Below, in pieces: positions 30,161 through 61,892 of a stretch of 64,000 nucleotides of DNA (positions are counted from its first letter, which is position 1; every line of letters begins with the position of its first letter). This DNA comes from Lytechinus pictus. Its lineage: Eukaryota. The notes beneath the pieces are model-generated. The model saw only the letters and a list, made by a program, of their open reading frames with translations. It made no database searches and was not told the DNA's origin. A program made the position numbers and the translations under genes. The DNA is taken from NCBI RefSeq assembly GCF_037042905.1, contig NC_087245.1:36086001-36150000 (forward strand), read 5' to 3'.

Positions 30161-30439
30161 TCTTATAGACCATCAATCTTCCCTCGGTGTAACCGCCACA
30201 GACCTGCCTTGAGTCGCCGGGACACGGCATACGACATCTGAAGTCGTGGTAGTAGTCACTGTCGATGGGTATACCCAGTCCACACGTACAGTCGCGTCCT
30301 CGTACGGCTGCCAGTTCGTACTTGCCCCGACTGCAGTGCTGTATACAGAGGTCGCCGGTCATTCGGTTATCGAATAGATGGTTGTCCCGGAGAAGAAGGG
30401 AATTCGAAGACCGGCCGAAGCAGCCCTGGTAACCGGGCT
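30161..30439 (-). CDS. Gene B WSC domain exon
   Basis: Translates YQGCF...MTGDLCIQHC...YELAAVRGRDCTCG...CRMPCPGDSRQVCGG...LMVY, the WSC consensus. ctgcag acceptor and gtaagt donor, phase 1-1. Confidence 0.9.
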
Positions 30440-33329: not shown

Positions 33330-33413
33330 TTTGGCAAATGATTCCAGCTCCTCCGCCTGATGGACAAAAACCCCGAGTTTCGACAAAAGAACAATCTGTT
33401 ATTTTGGCCTCAT
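33330..33413 (-). CDS. Gene B SRCR domain, second exon
   Basis: Translates DEAKITDCSFVETRGFCPSGGGAGIICQ, the E..L..C...C....AGV.C end of an SRCR domain. atttcag acceptor and gtgagt donor, phase 1-1. Confidence 0.85.
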
Positions 33414-36992: not shown

Positions 36993-37214
36993 CTCCATTA
37001 CACAGAAACTTAGAGGCTATTAAAGGAAGATTCCCTGTTCCAAAAACCTCTCCCATAGTTCTGAGCGATGCACCGGGGTAACCCAATTGATTGCAGGCAA
37101 CGGTCGCATCCATGATCGACCATCCCTCGTCGCAGATCGACCCGATGCTTGTCGATCCCAACACAAGTTCCACTCGGCCTTCATTCGGCGAATTTCCGTT
37201 CACTAGTCTAATTT
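36993..37214 (-). CDS. Gene B SRCR domain, first exon (group A, six Cys split over two exons)
   Basis: Translates EIRLVNGNSPNEGRVEL...GSICDEGWSIMDATVACNQLGY...FGTGNLP...FLCNG. tttacag acceptor and gtaaat donor, phase 1-1. Confidence 0.92.
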
Positions 37215-38422: not shown

Positions 38423-38536
38423 CGAGGCATGTTGACCAAAAATCAGAACAGCAATTCTCATTGACGATGCACTGATTATCACACTGACATGGTGCGAAGT
38501 TGACGTAGAGGTCGCATCTTCCTCTGCAAGTCTGAG
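38423..38536 (-). CDS. Gene B somatomedin-B (SMB) domain exon
   Basis: Translates QTCRGRC...PCQCDNQCIVNENCCSDFWSTC, the 8-Cys SMB pattern CxCDxxC.....CCxDF...C. taatag acceptor and gtgagt donor, phase 1-1. Confidence 0.9.
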
Positions 38537-38837
38537 CTATTAAGAGAGAGAGAGAAAACAAAATTGTTTTCACATTAAACATAATTTGAAAATACAAAAA
38601 TGGATCCATAGATTTTATTGAAGTAAACAGAAAGCTTTGAAATCGCTAAAGGAATGGGGGTGAGGAGGTTGAATCGATCCCCTTTGCGAATCATTAATAA
38701 TGGTTGTTATGATTGTGACAAATTCATCTAAGAAATTCTTTAGAAATGAGTTGGAATGGCCCAGGGTCGAGATCACACGTCGTTGAGGAGGATTTCAAAA
38801 TGACACTACATACACCCTCGTCTATTATACAGTCCTG

Positions 38838-38978
38838 GGAGCGTTTCCTAAAAGGACTTGTCGGACGTTTTATCCAACAGTTACCATAGTAACAGTGCTT
38901 CTCAGCCAATCAAAATCACGGATAGTTGTCAGATCCGACAACTTAACGGACAAAAATGTTGATGAAACGCCCCTCCCC
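38838..38978. mobile_element. Harbinger-like MITE (relatives at ~27098-27262, ~26770-26912, ~21205-21322)
   Basis: GGAGCGTTTC...GAAACGCCCC termini flanked by CTG. Internal gttgtcagatc.gacaact is shared with the 27098 copy in the opposite orientation. Confidence 0.65.
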
Positions 38979-39960
38979 CTGGAGTGTGTGAACATTGAAC
39001 TGGATGACTTCTAAAATAAAAATGGTTCATTGGCAGTTAATCGGCTCAGAGGATGCCGGCTAATAATATATTTTGACGTAGAAGTCATATCATCAGCTCA
39101 TGAGCGAAAATCTGTCCCCGGAGTTAAAGGGACCAGGGGTTGGAAACTTTGCCAAGCAACAACAAAAAAAGTTTATTACCTAAATTGTAAGGTCAATTTA
39201 ACTAACATAAAAATTGACAAGCAAAACAAAAAAAGAAAAAAAAGGTTTACACCAAAAGTGTAATGTCATTAGGAAAAAATACATGTACCATTTCGATTGT
39301 GAATGATGTATTTTTCTCCATCATAAAAGACCAAAAATAGTAGGGGGACATTTGATATTGTGTCCCCAAACTATTTTGGGTAGGGAGGACGCGTCCTCCT
39401 GTCCCCCCTGTGATTTCAGCCCATGCATCAGCTTGCTGTTATATATTCATGTCTGTATGCATATGTATAACTGTTACACACAAAAAAAACAAATCTTTAA
39501 AACAAAATTTTTTATCTGATTTTGATAAAAAAAACTTCAAATTTTGTGCTTGTTGAATTTTAGGCATTTTATTCAAATTGTTTCAAGGCTGGGGTATTAT
39601 AATAATTTTAATCCCCGAAACTGGTTCGTAAGACGGATTCTTTAAGTCTGAGATAAGACGATAATTATCATTGGCACCATTATTTTGACATCAAGCACAT
39701 CTGCCATACTTCTCACACTAAAAAAAGTTGTTTTCTTTTCGTGTTTTATCCTACGGGTGGTATATGAAGGTTCGATTCAATCGGGGGGGGGGGGTATGTA
39801 GAAGTTTTATTTATCATGGTCATGGTCACTTTCTATTAATCAATTCAATTCATGATACGCACCATATATCATAAATTCGACCAAAATATTGATTTTTTTT
39901 TCACGGGCATGCACATTAAGCCTTTGATTTAAAGGAAGATCGATTGAGCATATTTATATA

Positions 39961-40187
39961 CACTCTAAAAATTATTGGGTAAAACTGCTCCATGAGGGTG
40001 ATTTTGTGTTCAACCATTTTTATATCCAGTGTGATGAAATTTTGCCAATTCTAGAGTAATCGCTGCTTATTTTTTAACCTTACTGGACAATACGCTTGCC
40101 GCATTGGGTAAAATACTGCCCCAAAACTGGTTGGACATATAATTACCCTCGTGTTGGTTAAAATGTTACCCAATATTTTTTACAGCG
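39961..40187. mobile_element. CACT-terminus MITE
   Basis: CACTCTAAAAATTATTGGGTAA / TTACCCAATATTTTTTACAGCG inverted ends with TA flanks. Confidence 0.6.
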
Positions 40188-41116
40188 TAGTGGCTTGATC
40201 AAAATATCCGATCCCTAATACATAATTTCGTTAAATTATTGAAAAAAATAATCCCAAATAATCCGGAGATAGGACTTAAATTCTGGGACATCTTGTCTCA
40301 GGAAAACCCACCTTGTTGTCCCCACATTTAGTGTAGTTAACACGGAGTGAATTATTCATTTGTAGTAGGACAATTACATCATATTTTATCATTTTTTTTT
40401 AGCATTTTACGTTTTATAGAAAGCTCTTAAATATTTACATGACGCTGTCCAATACGTTATGTCAATGTGGTTCTTGACCTCATAGGTTCACAATTAATTG
40501 GGCGTGGCTATGAAAGGGACTCACTCAATATTGTGTTTATCAGCAAGCATTGAACACATAGTCTTGAAAATAATTTACGAACAATAATCCTATTATTGAA
40601 TGATTCTAATCCTTTGTTTTTATTTTTCATTAATTCAATTGCATTCAATTTATAATTCATCTATTCATTCATTCATTCACTCATTTTTTCATTTATTTAT
40701 TTTGCATTTATTTATTCTTTTTTATTTATTAATTTATTGGGGGAAGGGGGGTATCATCATTGAGGGGTATATCATGAAATTCACACCCTAAGCCTTTACT
40801 CTGCCGTCATTTCGTCACTGGTTTGGTGGCATTGTTTAGATCTAATCTTAATCATTCTTATCGCGAAAACAAGAGTGTTTAATAATACAAGAATATAAAT
40901 AATTCGTATTTACCTCAAAGTGGGCAAATTTCCTTACATTTAAAACGCCTTTATTGATTTAATACACATTTCAAAACGACTATTTTTATAATAACATGTG
41001 ACGTAGGACTACCTGAAACGGTGGTGACTGATATCTTGTTTTATAATACTTTAATCCAGGATTAATTCCGAATTAGTCTTTATAAGGAACAGCTAAACAT
41101 ACAAACAGATTATGGA

Positions 41117-41205
41117 TATATAAGGAGGTATCTGCACAATTTCAGATATTCCTACAGGCGTGCGTCCTCCGAAGATCTGCATCATCGTGTCCCCATATAC
41201 CACAG
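41117..41205 (+). promoter_or_regulatory. Probable amylase core promoter (TATA box) and non-coding exon 1 (~41143-41205)
   Basis: TATATAAGG at 41117, an Inr-like TCAGAT about 25 nt downstream, and a strong donor cag|gtgaga at 41206. The ATG exon starts at an acceptor only 6 nt before its ATG, so an upstream exon is implied. Confidence 0.55.
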
Positions 41206-41316
41206 GTGAGAAAATAACCGTTTCAAAGCATACTTAAGAAAATTAGGCACATACTTTGATCGTGGGTGCCGTAAGGCCTTGTTTCTCTGATTATATTTGG
41301 TCAATTTATTGTTAAG

Positions 41317-41347
<31 letters not shown>

Positions 41348-42361
41348 CATTATTATTATCATTATCATTATTATCATTATTATTATTATTATTAATACTA
41401 TCATCATTATTATTATCATCATTATTATTTAGCTTTCGTTGTCAATGTAAAAGAAAAACCAAAAGGAAAAAAGGGAAACTGTGGTGTTGAGATGAACACC
41501 ACTGAGAGGACCACACCCTGAAGTGTTAAAAATACACCGCGATCTTTGAACATAACACCTAATAGAGACCAAAGAACAAGCATAATGCGTTAAGATAACA
41601 CCCATGAGTGTTAATCTGACACCTTGAATTTTACATTGATGGGAAAAGCTTGGTTTGCAGCAGGGGTAGATTTAGCATGGTCCATTAATAGGGGGAGGTT
41701 GGGCAGGGGGGGGGGGTGGAGAATCCACACCTTTTCCAGGCTGGCTTCTCAAAAAGCTAAAAGCTAGGAGACTTCGGGGTAGGGAGATAGTCCTTATAAG
41801 ACGGAAACGAAGCAATATTTATCTTTATTTTTACAAACAAAATTAGATATGTTAAAAGGTCTTTAAGTAAAAAAGCGAGCGCAGAGTACAAACTGAGATA
41901 AACTACGCACTTTTTGTAGTCATAAGCAAGATGCGTGATACCAGCGCAAAGAGTTGACCCTTTGTCATTTTGTGATATACTGTCATAAAACAGATAGGAC
42001 AGCTACAGGAATTAATGAGCTGGATACGTTTTCATTAAGCAAAATTATTCGAATGCAAAGCACGAACTTATTTTTTTATATTTTGACCTGAAAACAGTAC
42101 ATTTTTAGCATTTTTAAAAACCTTTTTTTTTTGCGTGTCAAATTTTTCCACGGGAAAATGTGCCCCCTTTTGGAAAATCCTGGATCTGCCCCTGGTCGTA
42201 AGGATGGTATCTCTGTGCCCCCCTGATCCGTCTATGGTTTGTAAACACTGGTAGTGTATATAGTTTTAACTCCTGTTTTTTCAGTAATTTTTTTACTTTG
42301 TAAAATACAGATATTTTGTTCCAACTTTGAATCCTGTGCCATATACTTTCCTTTTCTGTAG

Positions 42362-42559
<198 letters not shown>

Positions 42560-43942
42560 TAAAAGGGACCATTATGTAATTATGATGATAGCACGTTAAG
42601 CTATGATGACACCGAAGTAAAATAGGAAGATCAATATTCACTTTGTTAAAGTTTGATATTTGGCTCTCGAAGGAGCTACTAAGCCATTTTTAACTACGTG
42701 AAAGTCCCACAATGTACCTTGCTGTACCCTTTACTGTTTTGATGTGTTCTCAATAACATTGATATCAAATAACTATAACGGTGTTGGTATTAATTCAATG
42801 GTTTACGTAATGACCTTGTTTTCCATGACAGGCATATTTCCATGGGCGCCCCCCCCCCCTGCGTACGGCTATAATCTTAAAACAAAGAAGAAAAATGAAT
42901 TATCTACCCCCACTCACATGACTCATGAAACTTAAAGCACGTAGGATTATTTTTACAATTTTTTTCGTTCATTATGCACCTGCAGATGGAAGCAGAACGG
43001 CACTAAATATCGGGCGATCATCGGGCACGAAAAAAAAATATTTTTCAGAACAACTTATCTGATATGAAAGGACAGAAGGCAAAGGCGCACTCGTTAACAC
43101 ATAAAACAGGTCCTTCTCATGTGAAAGGGGCACAATAAACGTTCGTGGGGGCACTTTTCTTAGGTAAAATGGGGCACTGATTCGAAAAAGGGCAGTTACA
43201 AGAAAGCAAGGGAGCACTTGCTCAGATCGACATGAAATGGGTCCTTCACAGGTAAAAGTGGCACAGAACACGTTCGTGAGGAGGGGAGGGGGAATTTTTT
43301 GGTAAAATTTGGCACTGATACGAGATATGGCACTTGCTAACACCTTAAACGGGTCCTCTTCCAATGAGAGGAGCACAGTACACGTTCGTGAGGGGGCATT
43401 TTTATTGCGTGAAAAGGGCACCTTTTCAGTGCTTCAAAAAGCGGGGGGCACTGTGCCTACTGCCCCCCCCCCCCCTCTGATCGCTGCCCCTGCGATATTT
43501 CAATATTCGTTATGAAAACCACCGACAGCTACTCGTGTTAAAACGGATACACAAACAGTTTTGATGATTTATCTTGATTTGGTTTACCCCATACTTCTTT
43601 GATTAGAGGTGTTAAAAGATTAACCTTCGACTTATAAATTCAAAGACGACATAATCGAAAACTACAGCGGGAAAACGACCTGTTGCGCATGTTCATCGAA
43701 CATCTCCATTATTCAGATGGGATTTTGCCACTTATTGAATGTTTGGATCTTGCGTTTCAACACACACAGACACTCGTATACAAACCAGAAAAAATAATTG
43801 ACATTTTTATTTAAAAAATATTTATCAAAAAAATTTTTGAAAAGAAAATTCAAGATTGAACACAATCATGGGAGCTAGGGCTGGTGAATATGCCGAAACA
43901 AATAAACATTTAAAATTTTGACTATTTTTGGTTGTTCGATAG

Positions 43943-44154
43943 ATTCTTGGGGCCTTATGGATTCGGAGGGGTGCAGATCTCACCCGCTAATCATCATATC
44001 GATGGTAGTCAGTGGTGGACACGATACCAACCGGTGTCCTATTACCTCAACAGCCGGAGCGGTTCCGACTCCGAGTTCCGGTCTATGGTTAATCGATGTA
44101 ACGCCGTGGGTGTCAATATCTACGCCGATGTCGTCATTAACCACATGGCAGCCT
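43943..44154 (+). CDS. AMY: Alpha-amylase coding exon 2
   Basis: Translates [14 protein letters not shown]...[10 protein letters not shown]...DVVINHM (conserved region I). atag acceptor and gtaagt donor. Confidence 0.95.
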
Positions 44155-44457
44155 GTAAGTCAATCTATGGGCTCGATGGATTTGAAACGGTTATCTTGTT
44201 TTCTTAATTAGTCTAGCCCCAACTTTAGAAAATATTTTGGCGGGACTTGGCTATCAAGTTCGATGTTAAAAACGATCGGTGAAAAGATCTAGCCACGTAG
44301 GGCACATACTCGGAAAATCATGGTATCGTTATCTACATAATTGAAACTGTACACATTTTTATCCTTTAGAAGATTAACCTTTCCTAATATACATGTTGAT
44401 GCCACTGTCAACAGAAAGGGACTTCAGAATAATAACAATTCATATTTTTAATTGCAG

Positions 44458-44628
44458 GGAATTATGATTTTCCTGACGTACCATTCGGTTCGACTGATTT
44501 CAATGTCCCTAATGGCAAATGTAACACTCAGAATGGTGAGATCAACAACTACGGCGATGCAGACCAGGTGAGAAACTGTAACCTTGTGGGACTCAACGAT
44601 CTATGGACTGGCAAGGAATACGTAAGAG
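44458..44628 (+). CDS. AMY: Alpha-amylase coding exon 3 (domain B)
   Basis: Translates [16 protein letters not shown]...[21 protein letters not shown]...EYVR. ttgcag acceptor and gtaaga donor, phase 1-1. Not in the ORF track. Confidence 0.92.
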
Positions 44629-44981
44629 GTAAGAATGGCCGTAATATATACATTTAAATATCAGATTCAGTAATAAGCGATAGGCAACAGAAAAATTGGT
44701 ATGAATGTCCGATTAAAAAGGTATATCCATCATGGTCGTACAGTATTATTGTCACAGAAAAAAAGCACTTTCCCGTCATTTTTTTCCTCAGGCGGCATCC
44801 CTTGCTAGACTACCCCCCCCCCCCCCACCCACCTTGTTTTGAACTAGAAAATCAGCCCTCGTAGTGCAGTCACTATGCAAGCACTGTAAGTGCTAAATTA
44901 GCACTTCATTTTTTACAGTGTAATATAGTCATGATTTCAGCTGAATTGGGCAGCCCACGCAACGTTTCGAGAAGTACAAAC

Positions 44982-45531
44982 CCCGGGGGGGGGGGGCACT
45001 CGACCAAAAAAGTGGTAGGGGTGTGCCGCGGGCGAGGCAAAAAACGGGGGCCTTGGAGCGGGCTTATTGTAAAAAGGAGGGTCCTCGGAACGGGCTTCGG
45101 AACTACAAATGTTTGTGAAAACGGGGGTCCTCGGAACGGATCTCCGTATCTCTGTGAGTGCGTATGCATCCCTATGGAACGGGCAATCGTGCATGACGCA
45201 GCTAGCGCGGCCTCCGCCGGGTGCGCTTTCGCTTAGGCGATGGTCGAAAAGCGCTCTACGGCCGCTTTTCACCAAATTGCAGCTCCTTGTAGCAAATCAA
45301 TGCGACCGGAACGGCGTAACGAAAAATATGCGAAGCTTTGGAACGGATTTCTTTCTTCTTTTTTCTCGATAAGAAGGAAATGCTATGCCTTGGAGCGGCT
45401 TTCTTTGTTCTTTTTCTCAAAAAGACAAAAATGCTATGCCTTGGAACGGAAATTTGAGTGTAAAAATGGGGGTACCCTCCGCGGCACATACCCACTATGC
45501 ATTATATACTGAGTGCCCCCCCCCCCCCGGG
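44982..45531. mobile_element. GC-rich non-autonomous DNA transposon with CCCGGG(G)nCACTC termini, in the last amylase intron
   Basis: Inverted termini and a perfect 8-bp TSD GTACAAAC at 44974-44981 and 45532-45539. Confidence 0.85.
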
Positions 45532-46042
45532 GTACAAACTAATCAGATTCGAAGCAGTGCAAATGACAGTCTTCACAAAAGTGAAATGTTAACTATTTCC
45601 GACTGAAACAGATTATTCAAATACACGTCGAGTATTAAGTGGTTAAGCTCAATTCAGCTCAAAGTACAATAAAATATACAGAGCGCCAGCCCTCCAATAG
45701 TAAACCAAACTGGTTTCAAAATTGACACAAGTGAAAAAAAAGTGGCTAGCTGGTGTGACCCCTCCCCTTGAAGCTGATCAATGTAGGTGCACCTACCCCC
45801 CCCCCCCCCCATCGCAAACGAGCGTGTACGTATTTTTTTACAAATGAAATGATACGGGCTCTATTTCAATGGTATTATTTTCATGATTTAGGCAAAATGA
45901 ACATGACAAATAGCACTTGAGACTTTTGAAAAGTAGCAATACTCATGGCATTGAGATTATACCGGGGAAATTTGATATTTTACGGAAGGTTTGGTTTTAT
46001 AAAAATGCCAATAAACATTCTCTGGTTTGTCATTTTGTACAG

Positions 46043-47559
46043 GAAAACTTGCTGCTTTTCTGAACGACTTGGTTGGTGCCGGGGTCGCTGGATTTAGGGT
46101 AGATGCAGCGAAGCACATGTGGCCTGGGGACCTTGAGAATATATTTGGCCGTGTCAATGGGAATCCATACGTCTACCTAGAGGTAATCGATCAAGGGGGC
46201 GAGCCAATTACAGCTAGCCAATACACCAATATTGGTGACGTCACAGAATTCAAACATTGTGCCCACATCTCCAACCTTGGCCGGTGTCAAAACCCTCTTA
46301 CCTACTACAGTAACTTTGGACAAGACTGGGGCATGTTGAGCTCAGACTCGGCTTTGGTGTTTGTAGACAATCATGATAACCAGCGTAGCCATGGGGGTGG
46401 TGGGGATGTTGTGACCTTCAAGGAATCTGTGAGTTACAAACGAGCTGTAGCGTTCATGCTGGCCTGGAACTACGGAACAAAGAGGATTATGAGCAGTTAC
46501 AGCTTCAGTGATACTGAGCAAGGCCCACCAGGAAGTGGCCCTACCATCAACGGTCAGGGTACTTGTGACGGTGGATGGATGTGCGAACACCGCTGGCGTC
46601 AGATCCGCAACATGGTTGGTTTCAGCAAGCAGGCTGGATGGGAACCTGTTCAAAACTGGTGGTCGAATGGTAACAACCAGATTTCATTTTCCAGAGGCAA
46701 CAAGGCTTTCTTCGCAATGACATGCGAAAGTCAGATATCGCGGGAATTCACCACCGGACTCCCTGATGGGAACTACTGTGATGTCATCAGTGGTGATCCA
46801 ACCGGAAGTGGGTGCACGGGAACGGCAGTTACGGTGAGCGGTGGAAAAGCCTACATCACTGTACCATCAGGAGAAGACTCGATGATAGCTATTCATGTAG
46901 GTGCTATGTCGGGTGGTAACGGAGGTGGTGGTTACCCAAGTAACCCAACCTCATCTCCTCCTGGGAACAACCCTACCTCTCCCCCAGGTACCTCCCGGAC
47001 AGTCATCTTCATCCGCAAGACTACCTCCACTGGTCAGGATATGTTCGTACAGGGTGGAATCAGTCACGAAAAACGTTCCGGTTGCACCAGCGATGCCGAT
47101 ACCAGTAACTGCGCAATCCCTATCACACATCGAACCGGAGGATCTGATATGACTCTCAATTACCAAAGACAAGGTGATGACTATCTTGATTGGTATGGTA
47201 GTGAGAGCGACCAGACTTTCCAAGCCAACGGCTCACCATTGGTGTGGACCACCAATAATATGGGTCATGGCGCCAACGTGGATACCGAAGGATATGGCTA
47301 CTTTGACCTTAACCAATGGGGTGACCACTACTGGATGCTTGATGTCGATATGGACTGTAGTAAGACGGAGAATGGATGGTTTGAGTTGAAAGGTTTCGTT
47401 AAAGGGGGACAGGGATGGGAAAGCGATATTTCCCAGAAAGTTTGCAGTGGGTCTGCGGGAGGAACAAGACCATACAGCTCAAACAATCACTTTGCTCGTT
47501 GTGGATATGTCAACAAGTTTGACTTCGAAAGCAATAGTTGTGAAATCAACAACTTTTAA
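46043..47559 (+). CDS. AMY: Alpha-amylase last exon: catalytic residues, domain C, Gly/Pro linker and extra C-terminal domain
   Basis: GFRVDAAKH, YLEVID and FVDNHDNQR carry the D/E/D catalytic triad. RIMSSY carries the chloride-site Arg. CEHRW is present. The full CDS is 2037 nt (678 aa). Confidence 0.97.
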
Positions 47560-47662
47560 GAAGATATTACAAACTATATGAACAAATTGAGAAACTAAAC
47601 TAAAATGCGGAGCTTCATATTTGCTCCATGTATGATTCACCACTACAAGTGGAATGCACTGT

Positions 47663-47668
47663 AATAAA
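47663..47668 (+). terminator. Probable amylase polyadenylation signal
   Basis: AATAAA about 100 nt after the stop codon, followed by T/GT-rich sequence. Confidence 0.55.
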
Positions 47669-47814
47669 TTATTTTTTGTTTGTTTCAAATTAAGACTTTT
47701 CAATGTCGTTATATTTTGTTACGTAGTCATATAGTACTCTTTATATATCTCTTTGTTCATTTCTTTCTGTCTGTCTCTATCTCTCTCTCTCTCTACCTGT
47801 CTTCCTACTCCTAG

Positions 47815-47865
47815 ATGATTACGACAATGATTATAATGTTGATAATGATGACGAAGATGATGATG

Positions 47866-47900
<35 letters not shown>

Positions 47901-48070
47901 AATGATGATGATGATGATGATGATAAAAATGATGATGATGATGATAATGATGATGATGATGATGATGATGAAGATGACGATAATGTTGACGACGATAATG
48001 GTGACGGTGATAATGATGGCGATGATGATAACGATAATGATGATGATTAAGATGATGATGATGATGATGT
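47815..48070. repeat. (GAT)n microsatellite
   Basis: About 85 imperfect GAT units. It produces the spurious poly-M, poly-H and poly-I ORFs. Confidence 0.95.
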
Positions 48071-48976
48071 GAAAATAGCCGTACACTCGAACTCACTTGG
48101 CGTACTTTTTCGATGATCAAATACTACATGGGCTAAAACCATCTAATCTACAATTTGATTTGGTCTTATTGCCGTTTGGTCTTCACTACACTTGGCTTAA
48201 TATATAGATGAAACTACCTAAAAATATCAGCCCGCGCTACGCCCTCGCATTTATTGTTTAGTAAGATACGCATCCTGTTCACCATTTCAGAAAATGCATT
48301 CCGTTTTAGCTCCAATTAACTTCCAAAGATTTTCAGCTTCCGCTCCCGCTCGCATTTTCTATTCATATTCCTAGTTCCCACCTTACGATTCACGCCAAAA
48401 TTGAAATCGTGATATAAATCGTGGAGTCATCGTGTCAGATCGTATCAGATCTCGAGGTCAGTCGTGGCAATTGTTTTGAGTGTAGAATAATTTTGGACGG
48501 CTAAAAAAAAAAAATCTTTCGCGATCAGCTATACTAAAGGCCAGTCGGAACGGATGGTAAGACATTGGGAACGAGGTAGATAATATTCTCAAATATACTT
48601 TTACATGTTACATGCTTAAAACAACCCCTTTCGGGTCAGCAAAATTTCAGCTCGAAATTAGCGCTCCAAACTGTTCAGTGCACGCATATTGCCCGCATTC
48701 ATAAGGTACCTTGTTTCTAAAAATAATGAAATAAACTGTACTTAAACTTCAGTCTTTAGAACATACCCTCTAAAATACCTTTAGCTCTTTATCGGGGAAA
48801 GTGTGAATGAAATTAGTTTTTCCATCCCCGTCACTCCAAATGGGGAAAAAAACTTGATTCTCCCTTGTTGAGTGTCCAGAATAGCATCACAATAAAACGA
48901 GGGTATAACACTTTAAATCATTCAAGATCATAAGATATTTAAAAATCACCTCAAAAGTAGGATTATCTTTCTACTA

Positions 48977-49261
48977 CCCTACTGGAATGAACACAGTTCC
49001 CCCACAGTGCCTTCAACGGTGTGTTCACAGTGTGGAATACAATGTGAATTCACCTTCCTACTGAGCATTGCAACACATAGACGACCAAGTGAACACACTG
49101 TAAGCATGCAATCACACTGTCGAGGACTGTCCACAGTGTGAAAATACCTTCACACAGTTGAATTTCAGCATTGTAACAGTGTGAATGATATTTTCACATA
49201 GTCCAATATGCGTGAACACACTGTGATCACACTGTGCGACATTGTGTTCTTTCGAACAGGG
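48977..49261. mobile_element. MITE with CCCT termini and internal CACAGTGTG/CACACTGTG repeats
   Basis: TA|CCCTACTGGAATGAACACA ... TGTGTTCTTTCGAACAGGG|TA. Confidence 0.6.
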
Positions 49262-50145
49262 TAGCTGGCTCTACTTCCACTCCACCCCCCCCCCCCTCCC
49301 ATCTCTCTCATCACCTCTCCCTTCCACTTCTCCAGCTCTGTCTATCACTCTCCTAATGTTGCAGAACTAATAATATAAATACAGACAAGAATCATGATAT
49401 AAGCGGAAGGGCAGGGCAGTCTTCGGATACTACCCCCATCAGGTTAACTCCCGCTTCCGTCATCTTTCTAAAGGGCAACAGAGTCCTAAAGGCTACGACC
49501 AAGCCTGGGATGATGGATGTCTTAAAGGGGGAGGGGGTTGTCCTGCACGTATATACCCTCTGCCTTTAAATCACTAGTCTTCATTCTTAATAATAATAAT
49601 GATAGCTGTATAAACTTTTTGCCAGAGAAAACAAAGCACATCTATTATTACTACACCTTTAACTCACACCGTTTATAATAATGAATAATGATAATATTCT
49701 GTTCTCTTATAGTGCTTAACACATGGCTACGCATGTCCCTAAAGAGTGTACCAAAGTTTATAAGCAAATTGTTTTTCATGCAATTTTTATGAGATTTCTC
49801 AGCATAATGCTTACTTCATTTTTCTCTCTCTCTCTCTCTCTCTACTTATTCAAAGTATTTGAGGCGGGTGAACTTTACTATTCCCGAAAACAACGAACAT
49901 CCGTGTTTTAGGTCCGTGCATGGTATTATAAATTACGACAAAGTTCTTTTCTCATCTGTTGCCAAATTTGGTGAAATTTGGGAAGACTTTCTAAAAAGAA
50001 TGTTGCATGCAGTTATTATACCATATCCAATATAATTTCTATCGATTCGTTTTGTCAGAAGATGGCTTTACCAACGATGTAAACAAAAAGGTAAATTTTA
50101 AGGCATAGCACTTATAATCGAACAGTTCCGCTTTATCCATACCCG

Positions 50146-50387
50146 CACTGCTAAAACTATGGTGTTGATTTAACACCAGCCCGGAATCTATGTATGTCCA
50201 CACCAGAGAAGTGTTAAACAACACCAGTTTCGTTTTGGTCTAACACCAGATAGGTGTTTATACAACACCAATTAGTATTAAAACAGCATCGGTTTGATTC
50301 CAAACTGGTGTTGTTTCAATACTTCTCTGGTGTGGACATATATAGATTCCGGGCTGGTGTTAAATCGACACCGGAGTTTTTGCAGTG
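50146..50387. mobile_element. CACTA/EnSpm-like palindromic MITE (further copies 54057-54300 and 57664-58172)
   Basis: CACTG...CAGTG termini, long inverted arms rich in AACACCAG, and a 2-bp TSD CG. Confidence 0.8.
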
Positions 50388-52243
50388 CGGTATTAGGGGG
50401 CAAGAGATGATAGGAATCCATGTGTGACCATACACATTGGTCACGTTGTTGGTCATCGTCTGAACTGAAATCTAAATAAAGTATTGACCTTCTTACGAGG
50501 ATGTTCGCTATCATCTTTTACAGATTCTTTTTCCCGAAATGTAGGTTCTCTGCCAAGTTTGAGAGGATTGACGGTCTTTGCTTAATCTAGATCATTCATA
50601 ATCATCATATTTTAAAGTTCATTGATAGGTCATCCTCGCATAAAAAGTAATGACTTTAATAAAATAAGTTTTGCTCATTCATTTCATCAATTTATTTTTT
50701 GGATCGACTTAGACATCGTGGTTGGCTTGGTTGACATAGCACTGGCTGACCCATGATGCTGCAGTCACATTTCCCCTACGGCGGCGCACGTTGAGTCGAA
50801 AATAGCAGGGGTTTTTCCATTCTTATTCAAACCACCTTTATAGTATGGAAAATGTGACTGCGCCATTACTCAGACCACACTTTTTTTAAAGTACCACTGC
50901 CCCATAATAGGGGCGGCGTCAGGTTATTATGATGGGGGCGGGGTGATGTACTTTTACCAGACCTAGACCTTTCTAAAACTTCTTTTTATTATCTATCTTT
51001 TTTATTCTTATTTTCTTTTTTCTTCACTACGTGATTCATTTATCAATTTAAAAGGAATGCAGTTATATGCAATAAAATGTGGCGTGGGGATTACAATAAC
51101 GTCCATGGCTTGCTGAATACAAAATATACAACATAGTATAATTAAGTGAATCAAGAAATTAAACCAACAATCAAATCTACAATTGGACAATTACTAACAA
51201 ACTACTAACACAAACGGACAGAAACAAACAAAATAATGTCTTGTATAATCAACATTCAAGTAAGAGATTTTCAATATTCAGATTTAAAGGCAAATTTTGA
51301 ATCGAAATAATTTCATTTATTAAGGAGTGAAATTAATTTTTTTCCACTCAGAAAATGCATGGATATCGAAACTACACGAATGGCTATTCTTCATACCACA
51401 AAGAAACAGAAGTCATATAGAAATTTAAGTTAGGCCTAAATCAACTCTGAAAACAGAATATATATCATGTACAATAATGATGTATAATATAGTCAATACA
51501 TATGGTAAACCAAACAAAAAACAATAAATAAATGAACTGTCAAATTCTGCCCTAATTAATAAGGGAAGATTTGACTCAATTAATTAGAAGTATTCTGCTT
51601 CTATAAGGTTTCGTCTACATGTCCATTTCATGTACTTCATTCATGTAACATATTATTTGAGAATGGTTTTATCATAATCTATATTTCATGTTTTGTCCTA
51701 TGTATGTATGGGTGTGTGTGGGTATGCGTGTATGTATGTATGTATATACAGTACGTATGTGTGGGTGTATGTATGCGTGTATCGCGTAATAATGTTGATA
51801 AATCAAAGCTTTGTGATTTCATGGATTTGTGGGGGAAAAGCTCAAATAAAATGAATTAACCAAATATTTTTTTTCTTTTCCGTATTATATTCGATTGTGT
51901 CAAGGGTTTAATAACGGACTAGTGACGTGTTCGGACGATGACACATATAGGCCTAACTAATAAACAATGACGTAAACGAGGATTAGTTTCAGAATTACGG
52001 GTCAATCTAACCTTATCAAGAAGCGCGTTGTATTGCTCAAATAATGATCATAACATGAAAAACATTAAAAATAGAAAATATAAAGGCCTATAGTTAAAAT
52101 ATATTTAAACAAAATTAATCTAAAGATGAGATTACCAAACCGACAAATGAATTTCATATTGATCATTTCAATAAATTCGAAAAGATTTGATATAACTCCA
52201 TACTTTTCAATTGATATCACAATCATGTAGGCGTAGGGATATG

Positions 52244-52560
52244 GGCCCGTATTCTGAAGTCGGGTTTAACTTAAACTCAGGTTTAAAGTTGTGGTTTAAG
52301 TATGGATAGCCAATTGGTACATAAATCACTAACTGTAGAGATATCACATTTCAGCTCATTTGGCTCTCAAATCATTCATTATTGTATAGGAAGTATAAAT
52401 ACATGTAGATGATTGTCTTCACTATCAGTGAATCAGGAAAGAGCACAGTAAATATAAGTAGCATACAACTTTATAAAAATGTTGACACTTTTGGCTTCCC
52501 ATAATTTTAGCTAAGAGTTAGACCATGGTCTCAGTTAAACCTGACTTCAGAATACGGGCC
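52244..52560. mobile_element. PIF/Harbinger-like MITE
   Basis: TIR GGCCCGTATTCTGAAGTC.GGTTTAACT and 3-bp TSD ATG. A decayed relative lies at about 6930-7200. Confidence 0.8.
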
Positions 52561-54056
52561 ATGGAGGCCATGCACCCTCCCCCAATAAAAAAGGAGTTTC
52601 ACGACCAATATAAAAGGGAGAAAAAGAAGGAAAACAAAAGGAAAGATATATAAGACAATTTTAAGCCGGGGTAATAATAGCAGCGCTTTGTATCCTTAGA
52701 CAAGAAGCGCTTTATAATTCCAGCTATTATTTTTTTTTTCGGAATAGGCCAATTATGTCAAAATTTATCACAAAATTAAATTTTTCTCAAAAAGTTGAGA
52801 ATTTGTGCCCGCTTGCTCCACTTGCTTGCTGCTTTTTATGCATTTAACCTCATACGACATGTCTCTTGCCACTCTAATTTTTTTTTTTGCTTAGCACGCT
52901 ACTGATTAGATTTGATTTTCTTAATCGTTAATTCTTAAACTAATCCGTTTGAAACTTCACGAGGTGTGTTTGTTTTACTCTTTCTCTAATATCAATATCG
53001 GAAGTTCAGGTTAATTAGGTTTTTTTTTCTGCTTTCAATATAATTCCACATAAAACAATTATTTTCGAATGAAGTTGATGGATTAAAAGAAAAGTTCATA
53101 AAAAATGAAGAGTTCAAATTTTGTGTGTGCAAATATCAACGTATGTATATCAGGATGTTGATTTAACTCTACAAACAATATGATATGTGGCTATTTTTTA
53201 GGTCAGAGGTATAATTTCCTGTCAGATCAGGAATTTATATAGATGTTGAGCCCATTCGTTATTAGACTTAAGAAGACAAACTGAATACCAAACTATAAAG
53301 ACCAAGTAAATATTATTTCTCATTGTGATGCAAGGTTATAACAGCTCCTCCATTTCTTTCAATGGACTGACATGTCTTCTTCTTCTTCTTCTTGTTTTTT
53401 TACTTGCTTACTTAACACTAATCAAACTGAAAATTAGGTACTCAGGAGGAATAAATTAAAGATGCTAATTAGATCTTAACCTATATTCTTAGTGAGCAAT
53501 AATATCGTACCTTAGGAGGCGGAGAGGTCATTTTCATGACGTCATTTAGTTGTTGTCTTTCGACGGGAAGGGGCCTCTGTAGATGGCGGTGAACTTTTTA
53601 AAAAAGTCTTTGGTATGACTCGGCCAGGGATCGAACCCTCAACCTTACATTCATGAGGCGGTCGCTCTACCACAAAGCCTCCATGATGTCTGGTTAATAA
53701 TAACTTCCTTAGGCCCCTAAATAGGAATTACATCGGACATGATTTTTTTTTTCTCTCTCTCTCTCTCTCTTCATAGTAATGCGAAAGAAATAAAGGTGTT
53801 ATATTCCAGGTTAAATTGTCCATGTACGTTTCCATTTATGCTCAATATTATACTGTTTTTGTTTTGTTTTACGAAGTAAGACTGCCCTTCTGTAAAATTG
53901 TACTTGATTTGTATTACTTTATATTACTTTGTATTATGTTTTGAATGGAAATGGAATAAAGAATTGAATTGAATTGAAGATTAAGTAGTGTGTGGATTAT
54001 TTGTATATTCATGTGTTACTGCAGGATGATCAGTCTATTGTTATTGTTTGTTGACA

Positions 54057-54300
54057 CACTGCAAAAACTCCGGTGTTGATTTTAACACCAGCCCGGAATC
54101 TATATATGTCCACACCAGAGAAGTATTGAAACCACACCAGTTTGGAATCGAACCGATGCTGCTTTGATACTAATTGGTGTTGTATAAACACCTATCTGGT
54201 GTTAGACCAAAACGAAACTGGTGCTGTTTAACACTTCTCTGGTGTGGACATATATATAGATTCCGGGCTGGTGTTAAATCAACACCAGAGTTTTTGCAGT
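54057..54300. mobile_element. CACTA/EnSpm-like MITE copy
   Basis: Near-identical to 50146-50387 in the opposite orientation. Confidence 0.8.
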
Positions 54301-55177
54301 TTAAGAGTGGATGTGGGGTGGGGTTGTTAGAGCGATGATTAATAATTGTGGGTGACAGTGTGTTGGGTGGATGCGTAGTGTTTGCTTCTCTTTTATGGGT
54401 GACGAATTTTGCAACAGGTTTCAGGTACCTCAATTTTTTTTTAACTTGTAAATAATAATTTTTAACAAATTTCGTAAATATTGATTAGCCAGTGTCATTC
54501 TCCTTTTGTTTAGTTTATCATATGCATCTGGTCATATTCTTTTATCAGTTTTGACTTCTGATGTAATCTCTTATAACCTTTTCAGGACCTTGTAAAACCA
54601 TGTTTTTATATATACTGATCTTGTGTTTTCCTGAAGGTTTCAATCGACAGTTTGTGGACTCTATAGCTCGCATGTGGCGTCTCTAAAATAAAACTTAAAC
54701 CAGTGGATATGAGCCAACAATTTTTGTACAAAAAAATTGAAGGATTTTGACATAATAAAAAAAGATAAATGTCACTCTTCCCCGTTCTTTTTCTTTCCCT
54801 TTCTCCTTTTATTTTCCTCGGCCGTGAGCCCCCCCCCCCCTTCGGTACGCCAGTGACTTAGATATGTTATTCGTTGATATATTTCTCTTATTTTTTATCA
54901 TTTTAAGATAATTTGACTTTATGGTGGTGTTCCCCTTTAAATTTGATGGTTAAATATCAGCTGTTGGCTTTGTGACAGATCGATAATCTCACGTCCAATC
55001 ATTCACTAAGAATCACCGATAGTAGGTGATGAGTCACAATTGTCAGAAAAATAAAATGCATTTCTGCTAGCTGTCAGAGGAAAATGTCCACGTTGGGTTA
55101 AATTTCACTTGTTTCAGTGAAAAAAGTATGCGATTGCCGTCTAGAAACAACAGTATGTATGTTAAGCAATTATTGTC

Positions 55178-55480
55178 ATTATTATTATTATCATTATTAT
55201 TATTATTAATTATTATCATAGCATAGGATTTGTATAGCGCAGGTATCTACCATGTTAGGCGCTCCTATGTGTACCCTGGCTAAGTTAGTCTACCGAGCCC
55301 GGTGCTCACAGCTTTTCGAGGAATTACTTTCTACTGGTACCCATTTACCTCACCTGGGTTGAGTGCAGCTCAATGTTGGTAATTTGTTTGCTGAAGGAAA
55401 ACACGCCATGGCTGGAATCGAACCCTCGTCCCTTAGATTGAAAGACGAGAGTCTTAACCACTAGACCACAGCGCCCTCAC
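55178..55480 (-). mobile_element. tRNA-derived SINE
   Basis: On the - strand: TGGTCTAGTGG A box, GGTTCGATTCC B box, CAACCCAGGTG..AAATGGGTACC core and an (AAT)n tail. Shorter SINE heads at about 36800-36958 and 53560-53685 (-). Confidence 0.8.
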
Positions 55481-55683
55481 GAATGCGAGTATATGCAATT
55501 GGAACTGACAGCAGAGGTGTCAAATCATCACATAGTTTTACACTAACACGGTGTTAAAACACCACAAGTTGCATTGTCAAATTAACACCGAAGCCTTGGG
55601 CAGGTCATTCCTTTTCGACACCTGTTAGTGTGTTTCTATATTGGAGATGGGCGGTGTTAAATTCAATTACCCATGCTCCTAAT

Positions 55684-57222
55684 CAGTGGCGTACCGTGGG
55701 TCACGGCATTGGGGGGGCACCAGCAAAAATTTTGAGTCGCTCAGTGAGCGCTCAAAGCGCGCTCAATTACCAGGTATAGGCCTATTGACCTTATATAGAG
55801 ACATTTTAAGGACTGTGCCATTAAACAGATAAGTAATGTATCTCACTGATCAAATGATGCGAGCGCGAAGCGCGAGCTGAAAATTTTTGAAATTCATACC
55901 CAAAAAGGGTCAAAATAAGCTATTAAATAAAAATAGAAAAAATACGCATCTGTCTCGCTAAACAAACAATGCGAGCGCGAAGCGCGAGCTGAAATTTTTG
56001 TATTTATTGACCCCAAACAGACACAGTTTAAGGACTATTTTTTAGAAATCAAATAAGAGAATACATATCTCACCATACTCATCTAATTTGAGTGCCAAGC
56101 GCTTGCTGATTTTGTTAGAAAACATGAAACCCCTTTTGTAGTCATTGTAAACATGATTAAAATACGCATCTCACTAATCAAATATTGCGAGCGCGAAGCG
56201 CGAGCTAAAAATTTAGGAAATTCAGACCTGAAGAGAAGCATTCTAAGGCTTGTTTGTAGGAATTTACGAAGACCATACGTACTTCACGTACAAAATGATG
56301 CGAGCGCGAAGCGCGAGCTGAAAATTTTGTATATATTGACCCCAAACAGGGACATTTTAAGGACTATTTCTTTTTTTTTAATCCATTAAGAGTATACATA
56401 TCTCACCATAGTCATCCAATGCGAGTGCCAAGCGATTGCTGATTTTGTTAGAATCACATTCAAACACACGAAGAGCTTTTTGTAGTCATAGTAATCATGA
56501 TTATCATACGCATCTCAGTAGCGCAAAGTGCGAGCTGAAAATATAGGAAATTCAGATCTGAAGAGGGGCATTCTAAGGCTTGTTTGTAGGAATCTACTAT
56601 GACCATACGTATTTCACTAAACAAATGATGCGAGCGCGAAGCGCGAGCTGAAAATTTTTTATATTTACAATAGAAAAAGAGACATTTTAAGGACCGATTT
56701 CAGGAATTCATGAAGAGCAGACAAATCTCATCAATCCACTAATTCGAACGTAAGCACGAACACGAACAAGGATGTTTTTATATACAGACCTTAAAATGGG
56801 GCTATCACTTTAAGTAGTCATGAAAAGAAGCATATGTCACTACATAAAACAATAATAACTCGAAGTGCGATGATATATATTTGGTGCATATTGACTTAAA
56901 AACAGGACGTTTTGGTACAACATGATTGTACATGTATATCTCGTTAAACAGACAATGCTAGTACCAGGAATAATGAACAAATGGGCCCTGAGCACATTAT
57001 GTTTCATAAAGTTATGAAAAAAAAAATTATTATGTAATATAACACAACATATAATATAATATAACATTATAATGTACAATAAATTCTTCTTTCCCACTAC
57101 GTTTCTTTCTTTTCCCTCTTTTTCTCCCTTTTCTCCCGTTTTTTTTTTTTTTTTTTTTTTTTTTTGCCAGCCGATTGGGGGGGCACGTGCCCCCCCCCAT
57201 GCCCCCCGTAGTTACGCCACTG
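55684..57222. mobile_element. Complete non-autonomous hAT-like DNA transposon (~1.5 kb)
   Basis: Terminal inverted repeats (TIRs) CAGTGGCGTA...TACGCCACTG. Perfect 8-bp TSD CTCCTAAT at 55676-55683 and 57223-57230. Internal tandem subrepeats. Confidence 0.9.
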
Positions 57223-58882
57223 CTCCTAATGATGCATAGTGAATGAAATTAGATTAACAATTATGACTTGCGAACGTCAGTGGTAAAGTTTTATAGGATG
57301 AGTCCTTAAATATACATACATGTACATGTATATCTGTAAAATTAGACAAAACCCTTCAAAACGAGAAATATGGAAAGAGAGCAAGAGATAAAAAAATGAG
57401 AGGGGGGCAAAGAATGGGGTGGGATATGAGAGTGACCGAGGAGGGGGGAGGAGAGATGAGGGAAGGAGAAAGAATTCGGTATAGGAGGAGGAATGGTGTG
57501 GGTGAGAAGAAAGGGGAAGTGGGAGAAAGGTAAAGAGTACTAGAAGGAAAAGAGTCAGAAAGACAGATGGTAAAGATGAAATGAATAACGGGAGCAGTAA
57601 CGTATCTGGCAAATCTCGTCGTCGAGGACTAAATGTTCTGAGGAGTAAACAAATATAATCATGCACTGCTGGTGTTGATTTAACACCAGCCAGGAATCTA
57701 TATATGTCCACACTAGAAACAACATCAGTTTGGAATCAAACCGATGCCGTTTTAAAACTAATCGGTGACCAAAACGAAACTGATGCTCTTTAACACTTCT
57801 CTAGTGTGGACATATATAGATTCCGGGCTGGTGTTAAATCAACACCAGAGTTTTTGCAAATTAAGAGTGGGTGTGGGGTGGGGTTGTTAGAGTGATGATT
57901 AATAATTGTGGGTGACAGTGTATTGGGTGGATGCGTAGCGTTTGCTCCTCTAATTGGTGACGAATTTTGCAAGTGGTTTCAGGTTCCTCACCTTTTTTTT
58001 TAAATAAAACTTGCAAATAATAATAATAATGCTGTTTTGATACTAATTGGTGTTGTATAAACACCTATCTGGTGTTAGACTAATACCAAACCGGTGTTGT
58101 TTAACACTTCTCTGGTGTGGACATATATATATTCCGGGCTGGTGTTGAATCAACACCGGAGTTTTTGCAGTGTAATAAAAGAAAAGAAGTCATCAGAATT
58201 ATGCCAGGGGAGAACTCTGCCACTATCCTGCAAGCACAGAATAAAATGTGACACTTTAACAATGTATACCATGTGAAGACTAGCCTCCAAATTCTCTGCC
58301 TGTGTCAGACAAACCACAAGTACACGTGTGAATGTAGTCTAATTACTTCAGACTCTTCTTATAATGCACTGTGCGAAAACAAAAGGTATTTGCCTGGAGA
58401 CTACATGCCCCATGCATGCCCCCTTTAAGGTAAGTTGAAGGAAAAGAAAGAAGAAAGATCTGAAGAAAAAAAAGACAAGGTGGGGAAAGTAAAAAGAACA
58501 AGAGATAAAAATATGAACAGGACACCCTCTCACAAAAAAACATATATTTATTCTGCGCTGACGCACATGCACTCTCAATAAAGAGTTAAGATGATTCATA
58601 TCAATACAGATGATTAAGTGAACATTTGTCATGGTTTCCCGATAAATGTTTGATACGAACAGGTCGATCTAGCTGGGGATACCAGGGCCGAGCACCCCTC
58701 TATTATTCTTATAATCATCACTTACACGTAACAAGACAGATGCTCTTACGACAATTGCCCCTCCGTCAATATCTTCTCTGAAGATAATAAGATGAGGGTT
58801 CGAAATTTCATAAGATGTTTAGTTCAGAATCATAATTTTTATGAGAATTAAAATTAAGGTTTAGGGAATTCAAAGTTTGGAG

Positions 58883-59855
58883 CAGGGGCGGCGGAACGTA
58901 TTTTCGTTGGGGGGAGGGCAAAGCAAAAAAGGGCACTTAGACCTATATGTCAACATTGGCATTTCGTTGCAAACGGATATTTTCACCACGAGATTACCAT
59001 CTGCGTAAATTAGTCGTGTGTTTTGTAGTAAAAAAGTTGAGCAAATCATTTACGTTTAATTTTTTTTCACGAGCGAGGGTAGCGAGCGGTTTTGAAAATT
59101 CTCAAATCTGAAGTTGTAAAACTCGCTTAACGGTCAATGACGCTAATTACTGTTAAAAGGGCATCCTCGCGAGATGTTGCAAGCACGAATCACGAGCTCA
59201 AACTTTTGGACATTTCATTTAATAAGCCATGAAAACGTTGTGTATCTAACTAAAGAATAGACATGAGCACGAAGCGCGAGCTGAAAATTATATTATACTC
59301 ACCAGATAAGTGAACTGATAAGGGCTGTATGAGTGATGAATAAGATAAATATCTCACCAATTCAATGCGCGAAGCGCGAGCTGAAAATTTGTGATATTCC
59401 GACCTGAAAACTGGACATTCTAAGCACTTTTTGTAACCAAGGACAAAATGAGTACCTTTTTATTACTATACAATAATTAATGCGAGCGCGAAGCGCTAGC
59501 CAAATTTTTTTATGATTTTCTAACTTAAAATGTATCATGTTTTATTTCAAAAAGGGTATTTTGTTTTGAAAAAGGGCACATTTCATTTTGAAAAAAAAAG
59601 AAGACGTTTTTTTCCTATGGGGATTTTTTAACCAAGGACAAAATGAGTACCTTCTTTTTATTACTATACAATAATTAATGCGAGCGCGAAGCGCTAGCCA
59701 AAATTTTTCATGATTTTCTAACCTAAAATGTATCATGTTTTATTTCAAAAAGGGTATTTTGTTTGGAAAAAGGGCACATTTCATTTTGAAAAAAAAAGAA
59801 GACATTTTTTTCCTATGGGGATTTTTTATGCCCCCCCCCAGCTACGCCGCCCCTG
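58883..59855. mobile_element. hAT-like non-autonomous element with an internal ~195-bp tandem duplication (59434-59828)
   Basis: TIR CAGGGGCGGCG / CGCCGCCCCTG. TSD GTTTGGAG / GTTTGAAG matches at 7 of 8 bases. Confidence 0.8.
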
Positions 59856-60566
59856 GTTTGAAGCTCTGATTTATGTTTGGCTAAATATATGTACTTCCAG
59901 TATAGGAGCAATGCCGCTAACATGGCTAATGCCGCATGAGCAACTGTCATGAAGTCCCCTTGAACTAGCGTTATAACTTATATCAAAATATAGACAGATA
60001 TAAACATGATAAATACAAATGCCATCTGCGCCCATTCCATTTCCGAAATCCAGGATCTGCTACTCTGTGTATCCTTATTTTTGTTTTGTTATGAACTTAA
60101 AAAGTGCACTGAACCACCATCTACGGCACATGCGATATAATATTGATGATTTTAAAAGTCTTATACGAAATTAATTTTGTCACTGTACATCACAACAACC
60201 AAGGGTTGCGGTACAGCTTGATTGTTAAAGGGGGTGAACTGTGTGTGGTCTCTCTTTGATTGTGTGTTATAATAATACATAGTCTTAAAATATACGTTTT
60301 CAGATAATCTACTAATACTACGGTGAATTAATTGACCTATAATTGTATTTGTATAGAGAAACTAAAATGTTTTGAGAGGAAAAGTAATTGTTTTGCTACT
60401 TGGTAACATAATTATTGTGGTATAAATGTATTGAGTAGTTAATTAGTATGTTATCATTCAAGTGAGTCTATATTACTATATTACATTAGCATTATGGGTC
60501 AGGAAACTGGCCAGGTATGAGTAATTGAGGACTCGAGATGGCGCTTTTGGTTCGTATCTGCTTTAA

Positions 60567-61138
60567 AGGTCAAGCCCACCCCCCAAAAAATTGATTTGAA
60601 TACAAAGAGAAAATTCCAACGAGCATAACACCGGAAATTTAGTCAAAATCGGATGTAAAATGTGCAAGTTATGACACTTTAAAGTTTCGCTTAATATAGA
60701 TAACAGTTGTATGCACACCATGATGAGACTCATGACGTCACCCACTCACTATTTCTGCTGTATATTGTTATATGGAATATGAAATATTCTGATATTCTCC
60801 TCATTGTTGGCGAAACAACGAATAATTCCTCCCTGAATATGTGGAATTGGCATTGTTTAATACTATGTGGTTCAGTTAAGTTAGTCCAGCAAAAAATAAA
60901 TATTGTAAAACAATATAGAAAAAAGGAATAGTGAGTCAGGGACATCATCGACTATCTCATTAATTTGTCATGTCACTGAGTTGCGCATATCACTGTTTTT
61001 TGAAAGATAAGCGAAAGTTATAAATGCCATAACTTTCTCATTTTTCATCCCCCCCAAAAAATGAAATTTTCAGCGTTATGCTGGTTTGATTTTTCTCTAT
61101 TTATTCAAATGAACATTTTTCTGGGGTGGACTTGACCT
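60567..61138. mobile_element. Kolobok-like non-autonomous element (TTAA TSD, AGG termini)
   Basis: TTAA|AGGTCAAG.CCACCCC ... GGGGTGGACTTGACCT|TTAA. Partial copies at about 22060-22448 and 12240-12730. Confidence 0.8.
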
Positions 61139-61831
61139 TTAAAGCCAAATAATATGACTTTCTGATGAAGGGGGTAGGGGGTGTAGAGGGGGAGAGAGAG
61201 AGCAACAGGAACTATAAATATTACATCAATTGAAACTATTTTTACTGCTTATCTGTGAAGGAAGCTCACAGTTTCCGTTAAACTTGCCATGTACATACAT
61301 ATATAAACGCGATGCATATAACCATTTCAGTTGTATCAACTTACTGTTCAACCTTTACTAAACAAGGTAGCAAGATTTGGCACGGCCCCAATACAAATCA
61401 GATTCTGTGTCTGTTTGGTGGTTTTTTTACCATGTGAAAATAAAATTTGTCTATCATCTATATTTCTAAAGAAAAAAAAATTATATTCTACGGCTATAGC
61501 AAATGATACAAAACTATTTAGAAGTAGCGAAAAAAAAATATAGTAGGAAAAAAGATACAAGTAATGAAACAGGAAGAGAAACGGAAAATAACATAAATAG
61601 AGGGGTATTATAATAGATCATATCGCTATATATAAAACAATTATCCACTTGAGAAAATAAGCCCCCTTCCACCATAAATTCCGTGGTGCCGTCCACTGCC
61701 GTTTTCATACACTCGCACTCCCCTCATGTGACATGTCACCCCTTAGATTCATCAATCAATCGTCATCAGTTGACGAGTTTTCATGATTATAACTTTGGAT
61801 AACTTACGTCAGCTAGAACATTTAAACTTAC

Positions 61832-61892
61832 CCTGCACAGAAGAGTGTATCCATAACAGCGACAAGACAAGGGATGAATAAACCATCATCAT
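61832..61892 (-). CDS. Gene B probable first coding exon: signal peptide
   Basis: Translates MMMVYSSLVLSLLWIHSSVQ followed by G|gtaagt (phase 1). Splicing to 38536 gives SSVQA/QTCRGRC, a plausible cleavage site. The nine exons total 1494 nt, giving 497 aa plus stop. Confidence 0.65.

Follow-up and report, generated by a model that had tools for sequence, protein, structure and literature searches.

An alpha-amylase gene probably nested antisense in the first intron of a receptor gene of the sea urchin Lytechinus pictus

A nested alpha-amylase gene has reportedly been described in Drosophila ananassae (Da Lage et al. 2003, J Mol Evol 57:355). In its accessible part, PMC13343718 cites this gene as a case for transcriptional interference and puts the share of nested genes at about 10% in Drosophila and 5% in mammals, relocation being a frequent route. 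The same text presents, after Assis et al. (2008), nested intronic genes of animals in which the whole coding sequence lies in one intron, having arrived by relocation as a lineage-specific “young” pair. Here, a stretch of 64,000 nt from L. pictus (NC_087245.1, positions 36,086,001 to 36,150,000, assembly GCF_037042905.1; hereafter the window, numbered from its first letter) was analyzed, in which an amylase gene would lie within intron 1 of a receptor gene (LOC129266459, the host) on the opposite strand. The pair is an ordinary kind of nested gene and not a new kind of system. Indeed, nothing distinguishes it structurally from the known nested intronic genes apart from the species and the gene pair, and the D. 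ananassae case concerns an insect and an independent event. This nested pair is very likely real and probably unannotated, and no paper on it or on the receptor architecture in urchins was found in a literature search outside of which most subscription journals fell.

The two genes and their arrangement

On the plus strand, an intact frame of 678 aa at 42368-47559 is identical to RefSeq XP_054773707.2 (P0015). The coordinates proposed in an earlier reading made from the letters alone (the sequence-only reading) held, with a TATA box at 41117-41123, the ATG at 42368, the stop at 47559 and AATAAA at 47663-47668. On the minus strand, nine exons from 61892 to 25952 join through canonical splice sites into a single open frame of 497 aa with the domain order SP-SMB-SRCR-WSC-Sushi-TM, i.e., signal peptide, somatomedin B (SMB), SRCR, WSC and Sushi domains and a transmembrane helix. 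The features of both genes are as follows.

61832..61892 (61 nt), minus strand: host coding exon 1, 20-codon signal peptide, phase-1 GT donor (tblastn and candidate-exon scoring)
38537..61831, minus strand: host intron 1, 23,295 nt, GT-AG, phase 1, with the amylase and many interspersed repeats inside (junction placed by orthology; repeats from read pile-ups)
38423..38536, minus strand: host exon 2, somatomedin B domain (Pfam PF01033, E 1.2e-8)
36993..37214, minus strand: host exon 3, first part of SRCR (Pfam PF00530; exact exon in a 683-nt spliced X13 contig)
33330..33413, minus strand: host exon 4, second part of SRCR (exon joining, tblastn)
30161..30439, minus strand: host exon 5, WSC domain (Pfam PF01822, E 1.4e-17)
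29656..29862, minus strand: host exon 6, Sushi/CCP domain (Pfam PF00084)
28520..28561, minus strand: host exon 7, stalk (exon joining, tblastn)
26626..26719, minus strand: host exon 8, transmembrane helix (exon joining, tblastn)
25952..26342, minus strand: host exon 9, Pro-rich cytoplasmic tail and stop (exon joining, tblastn; no Pfam family)
41117..41205, plus strand: amylase TATA box, with a probable non-coding exon 1 whose donor follows 41205 (read from the sequence)
42368..42504, plus strand: amylase coding exon 1, signal peptide (frame; spliced contigs in X1 and X13)
43943..44154, plus strand: amylase coding exon 2 (frame; spliced contigs)
44458..44628, plus strand: amylase coding exon 3 (frame; spliced contigs)
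46043..47690, plus strand: amylase last exon with D194/E220/D285, C domain, extra C-terminal domain, stop at 47559 and AATAAA at 47663-47668 (frame, Pfam, contigs)

The SMB exon (38536-38423) opens at a phase-1 AG without an ATG, as had been claimed. Candidate exons preceding it were taken as all ATG-to-phase-1-GT stretches in 38537-64000 and in 30 kb beyond the window (1217 candidates, 710 donors), and were scored against the N-terminus of the Strongylocentrotus purpuratus receptor XP_003725934, in which a signal peptide is directly followed by the SMB domain. The exon that the sequence-only reading had picked, 61892-61832, was the best of them, its donor at 61832 scoring 72, whereas the top score among the 1214 candidates with other donors was 18 (mean -13, standard deviation 12.8). 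In line with this, residues 2-21 of the S. purpuratus receptor were placed by tblastn at 61892-61833 with 65% identity (13/20 residues, E 0.002), and an intron-free Logan protein (P0011) has the same N-terminus, with the signal peptide directly before SMB. The exon has an intact frame, a hydrophobic core and a donor matching at 6/7 positions, and the 221-nt stretch around it has one genome match and is single-copy. Its phase-1 GT donor, joined to the SMB exon, gives an open frame and an intron 1 of 23,295 nt. The whole amylase unit thus falls antisense in intron 1, between exons 61892-61832 and 38536-38423, as first proposed, and its coding sequence is entirely inside 38537-61831 once host exon 1 is assigned by orthology. 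From these sequence comparisons, the nesting is considered very likely.

The predicted protein marks the host as a type I membrane receptor of echinoids, unrelated to the amylase. SMB, SRCR, WSC and Sushi were all found by Pfam above cut-off in single exons. The host is transcribed, as illustrated by the 683-nt contig of run X13 that contains exon 37214-36993 exactly, and the remaining 415 and 46 letters of this contig match the sizes of the neighboring host exons by arithmetic only. XP_003725934 is 78% identical to the host, with the same domain order and the same signal peptide. It is probably Sp-Krn1 (SPU_014614), to which it was matched through product name and Pfam list and not through sequence; the literature search returned no paper on the name Krn1. 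Vertebrate Kremen1/2 are also type I membrane proteins with a WSC domain. Kremen receptors have a Kringle-WSC-CUB ectodomain, whereas the host has SMB, SRCR and Sushi in place of kringle and CUB. An assignment of the host as a Kremen receptor was ruled out, Pfam showing SMB, SRCR, WSC and Sushi only.

The nested gene is predicted to encode an animal-type GH13 alpha-amylase, having a catalytic triad, a domain C and a signal peptide. Pfam placed PF00128 and PF02806 above cut-off, and D194, E220 and D285 correspond to the catalytic Asp/Glu/Asp of conserved regions II-IV. The substrate of alpha-amylases is alpha-1,4 glucans. In contigs of runs X1 and X13, none of the listed matching runs being recorded as RNA, the gene is spliced at three GT-AG introns, and the contigs terminate at 47689-47690, about 21 nt past AATAAA. 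Among the rows listed from reads, none contained the splice of the leader exon (donor after 41205), and runs X17 and X19 (raw RNA, about 6% read) had zero depth across the last exon. The whole last exon was matched at 43-48% by invertebrate and marine bacterial amylases (Pseudoalteromonas, Alteromonas, Colwellia). Its C-terminal domain, of about 190 aa (46950-47556, plus strand, after a Gly/Pro linker), has no Pfam match and presumably represents a known case of domain sharing. As far as its accessible text goes, PMC3096672 gives three introns for an S. purpuratus amylase gene and refers in passing to an extra C-terminal domain in some animals.

Origin of the nested copy

The C-terminal part of the amylase has four matches in the genome, the closest paralog being located on C11. 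This paralog has the same four coding exons and, by eye, a similar TATA box and short leader exon upstream, and its neighbors within 60 kb are a G-protein-coupled receptor gene and PLAA. The two copies differ at 90/181 four-fold sites, and no non-coding similarity between the two loci was found beyond interspersed repeats. Because the exon layout and promoter are shared with the C11 paralog, a DNA-based move is favored over a retrocopy. A retrogene was rejected, given three spliced coding introns and this common exon layout. Transposon capture was also rejected: comparison of flank with flank gave only 9 matches of 16-29 nt, mostly microsatellite or T-run, although an old event could have erased the ends. 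On C11, upstream of the paralog (L010:2000-8000), a 31-nt match to window positions 41526-41556 is repeated three times at a spacing of about 1.45 kb, as would be expected of a tandem repeat unit.

Then, the two genes were located in other urchins, among annotated proteins and with contigs distinguished by size alone. In S. purpuratus the receptor is on a contig of 39,667,378 and both close amylases on one of 39,838,600; in Diadema setosum the sizes are 30,926,319 for the receptor and 37,683,275 for the amylase; in D. antillarum they are 476,944 and 14,326,224 for the receptor vs. 788,141 and 1,288,392 for the amylase. Among the close amylase matches, none is annotated on the scaffold of XP_003725934. 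Conservation of the nesting in other echinoderms, raised by the sequence-only reading as a check, was thus not observed, the genes being on separate contigs in 3/3 species in which both were found. Hence, the nesting looks derived and lineage-specific. Since the amylase has host exons on both sides and the two genes are separate in the outgroups, the simplest reading is that the amylase was inserted into the receptor and not the reverse. Searches for the ancestral amylase site gave nothing above 50% identity with PLAA, the neighbor of the C11 paralog, and with Hsp70 and Forkhead only the C11 FoxD, whose cluster is all Lytechinus.

In an amylase tree of 10 rows, cut from an earlier quick tree of 33 rows, both L. 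pictus and both S. purpuratus amylases formed one clade (98/96), as opposed to a single Diadema lineage. The S. purpuratus protein closest to the nested amylase is P0136/P0016 (83.2%, vs. 80.5% for the other), and 3/3 published SpAmy3 primers translate to peptides present in it. SpAmy3 (SPU_014671; XP_787209/XP_030851439) is therefore comparable with the nested amylase through its 83.2% identity, its echinoid amylase clade and its extra C-terminal domain. However, it lies on its own scaffold, apart from the receptor, and is a candidate one-to-one ortholog. SpAmy3 is expressed in upper-stomach exocrine cells, is lowered by Ptf1a knock-down and serves as a larval exocrine marker, according to the accessible part of PMC4880809. 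In the tables of PMC9437490 that could be accessed, Sp-Amy_3 has the top scaled value in the one taken as the exocrine transcript list, where the two WSC rows are other genes and Sp-Krn1 is absent; in the marker table, Sp-Krn1 is listed for immune cells alone, where it is a weak marker (5.3% vs. 0.2%) and not significant (adjusted p 0.28). A PTF1-like E-box plus TC-box was found in neither amylase locus of L. pictus, with one search pattern, a weak test.

From these data, we consider it likely that the two genes are independent and nested, the amylase having been relocated as DNA in a tolerated insertion. Both would share DNA, with minus-strand transcription of the host beginning near 61.9 kb. 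Once the amylase had been duplicated in camarodonts, one intron-bearing copy would have moved as DNA into host intron 1 in the line to L. pictus, taking along its TATA promoter, its leader exon and its poly(A) signal. Because of the antisense orientation, the host transcript would ignore the splice and poly(A) signals of the amylase and splice it out. The amylase may digest starch as an enzyme secreted by gut exocrine cells, in the manner of SpAmy3, and the host would mainly be used in other cells, resulting in little interference and in tolerance of the insertion, which is most likely neutral. The sequence-only reading had also offered coincidence as its third option, and coincidence of insertion fits best.

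Opposing evidence and alternative readings

Several observations weigh against this account. Four of the 19 listed runs were aligned to 36900-56899, a 20-kb stretch that excludes 61832 and is shorter than the 23.3-kb intron, and no read or contig row across the 61832-38536 junction, nor any row at 38536, was among those listed there; alignments on this stretch were mostly interspersed-repeat pile-ups, with 15 joints listed and a further 124 joints, 1932 loose ends and 8371 pieces beyond the listing. The order of the amylase duplications is open (p-AU, from the approximately unbiased test, of 0.185 with the two L. pictus copies together and 0.121 with the nested copy and SpAmy3 together), and no L. 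variegatus ortholog of amylase or receptor turned up in protein searches. The date of the insertion is consequently loose. The comparison of contigs by size and annotation also counts here, as an unannotated nested copy may exist in the three other species, and the expression evidence comes from S. purpuratus, where amylase and receptor are not nested. Finally, two RefSeq models of the L. pictus host start within intron 1, at 40327 and 41185.

40312..40327, minus strand: host first exon in the current RefSeq model P0001, with 5 codons and without a signal peptide (donor 6/7; probably an annotation patch)
41107..41185, minus strand: host first exon in the older RefSeq model P0005, which crosses the amylase promoter in antisense (donor weak, 2/7; probably an annotation patch)

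The two models differ in their first exon, and neither has a signal-peptide-like hydrophobic core. The Diadema RefSeq receptor models P0003, P0013 and P0014 also have no signal peptide, the first exon being probably missed there too. Because the L. pictus models disagree, carry no signal peptide and have this fault in common with those of Diadema, both first exons are read as probable ab initio patches. A host start between 38537 and 41100, which the sequence-only reading had named as evidence against its exon 1, therefore exists on paper in RefSeq, in models that conflict and are devoid of signal peptides.

These starts could instead reflect a regulatory effect of the nesting, in which a bidirectional amylase promoter drives a new short, antisense, signal-peptide-less host isoform from 40.3-41.2 kb (near 40.3 kb in the current model), or, in exocrine cells of the gut, represses, reshapes or silences receptor expression. 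The exon at 40327-40312 has a good donor (6/7) and faces the amylase TATA box head to head at a distance of 0.8 kb; run X13 has a depth of 5.55 in the bin 40235-40901; and expression divergence is more frequent in young than in old nested genes, as stated in the accessible part of PMC13343718. However, the depth in this bin is 0 in X1, 0 in X17 and 0.06 in X19, no 40312-38536 joint is among the 15 joints listed of a longer set, and Diadema models with no amylase on their contig have non-signal N-termini as well, which, together with the conflict between RefSeq versions, points to annotation failure. Such an effect is thus unlikely. If true, it would be a lineage-specific rewiring, comparable with S. 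purpuratus, where both genes are unlinked.

It is still less probable that the genes are not nested, i.e., that the host starts downstream of the amylase with the 61.9-kb exon as an orphaned relic, or that the assembly misplaces the amylase. The RefSeq starts within the intron and the lack of a direct junction read among the rows listed would agree with this. Yet the 61.9-kb exon, which is single-copy, has kept its frame, hydrophobic core, 6/7 donor and 13/20 identity to S. purpuratus; the next gene upstream on the minus strand is already complete about 3.6 kb before it, ending in a cytoplasmic-tail open reading frame; and a signal peptide is required in a type I receptor whose ectodomain is intact. 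In addition, the older model P0005 comes from another allele, and there too the SMB exon is directly preceded by DNA of the amylase promoter.

The ligands described for WSC domains, in the accessible part of PMC9024836, are beta-1,3-glucan (fungal lectin) and Dkk/LRP6 (Kremen), and not starch. Since these ligands and the alpha-amylase substrate differ, the chemical link is weak, and the least probable alternative is a selected functional unit of glucan-sensing receptor and glucan-degrading enzyme with common gut enhancers, as contemplated in the sequence-only reading: the physical nesting and the ability of WSC domains to bind carbohydrate (PMC9024836, same part) would suit it, but the pair is apart in three other species and the single-cell tables place the S. 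purpuratus amylase, and not the probable receptor ortholog, in exocrine cells.

The significance of independent nested genes is modest and consists of a gene-model correction and a natural comparison. The public model of LOC129266459 is corrected by the addition of the signal-peptide exon, which lies 23 kb upstream and is missing from the RefSeq proteins. Cloning or editing this gene from RefSeq would overlook the 61.9-kb exon, and edits within the amylase land in the receptor intron. The pair, nested in L. pictus vs. unlinked in S. purpuratus, provides a test case for the effect of a strong exocrine gene on its host.

Neighboring features

Just past the window, upstream of the host on the minus strand, a tandem neighbor is probably a gene with signal peptide, SMB domain and Tyr-rich tail (L015:1545-1979, L016:146-475, about L016:6983-7052). 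Forkhead genes occur in identical pairs of chromosome and small contig (C2 and C25; C3 and C224), which suggests retained haplotigs. Within the window, 904-4842 (plus strand) contains exons with leucine-rich repeats (Pfam LRR_8) and, after them, an open reading frame at 4516-4842 that resembles a death domain but has no Pfam match. A probable mucin-like membrane gene extends over 10549-22900 (minus strand), with repeated Ser/Thr-rich micro-exons near 20987, 20616, 19586, 18795 and 18020, a hydrophobic exon near 12700-12900 and an open reading frame of 387 aa without Pfam match. Its span includes, at 13697-15854 (plus strand), a reverse transcriptase of the long interspersed nuclear element (LINE) type in two frames.

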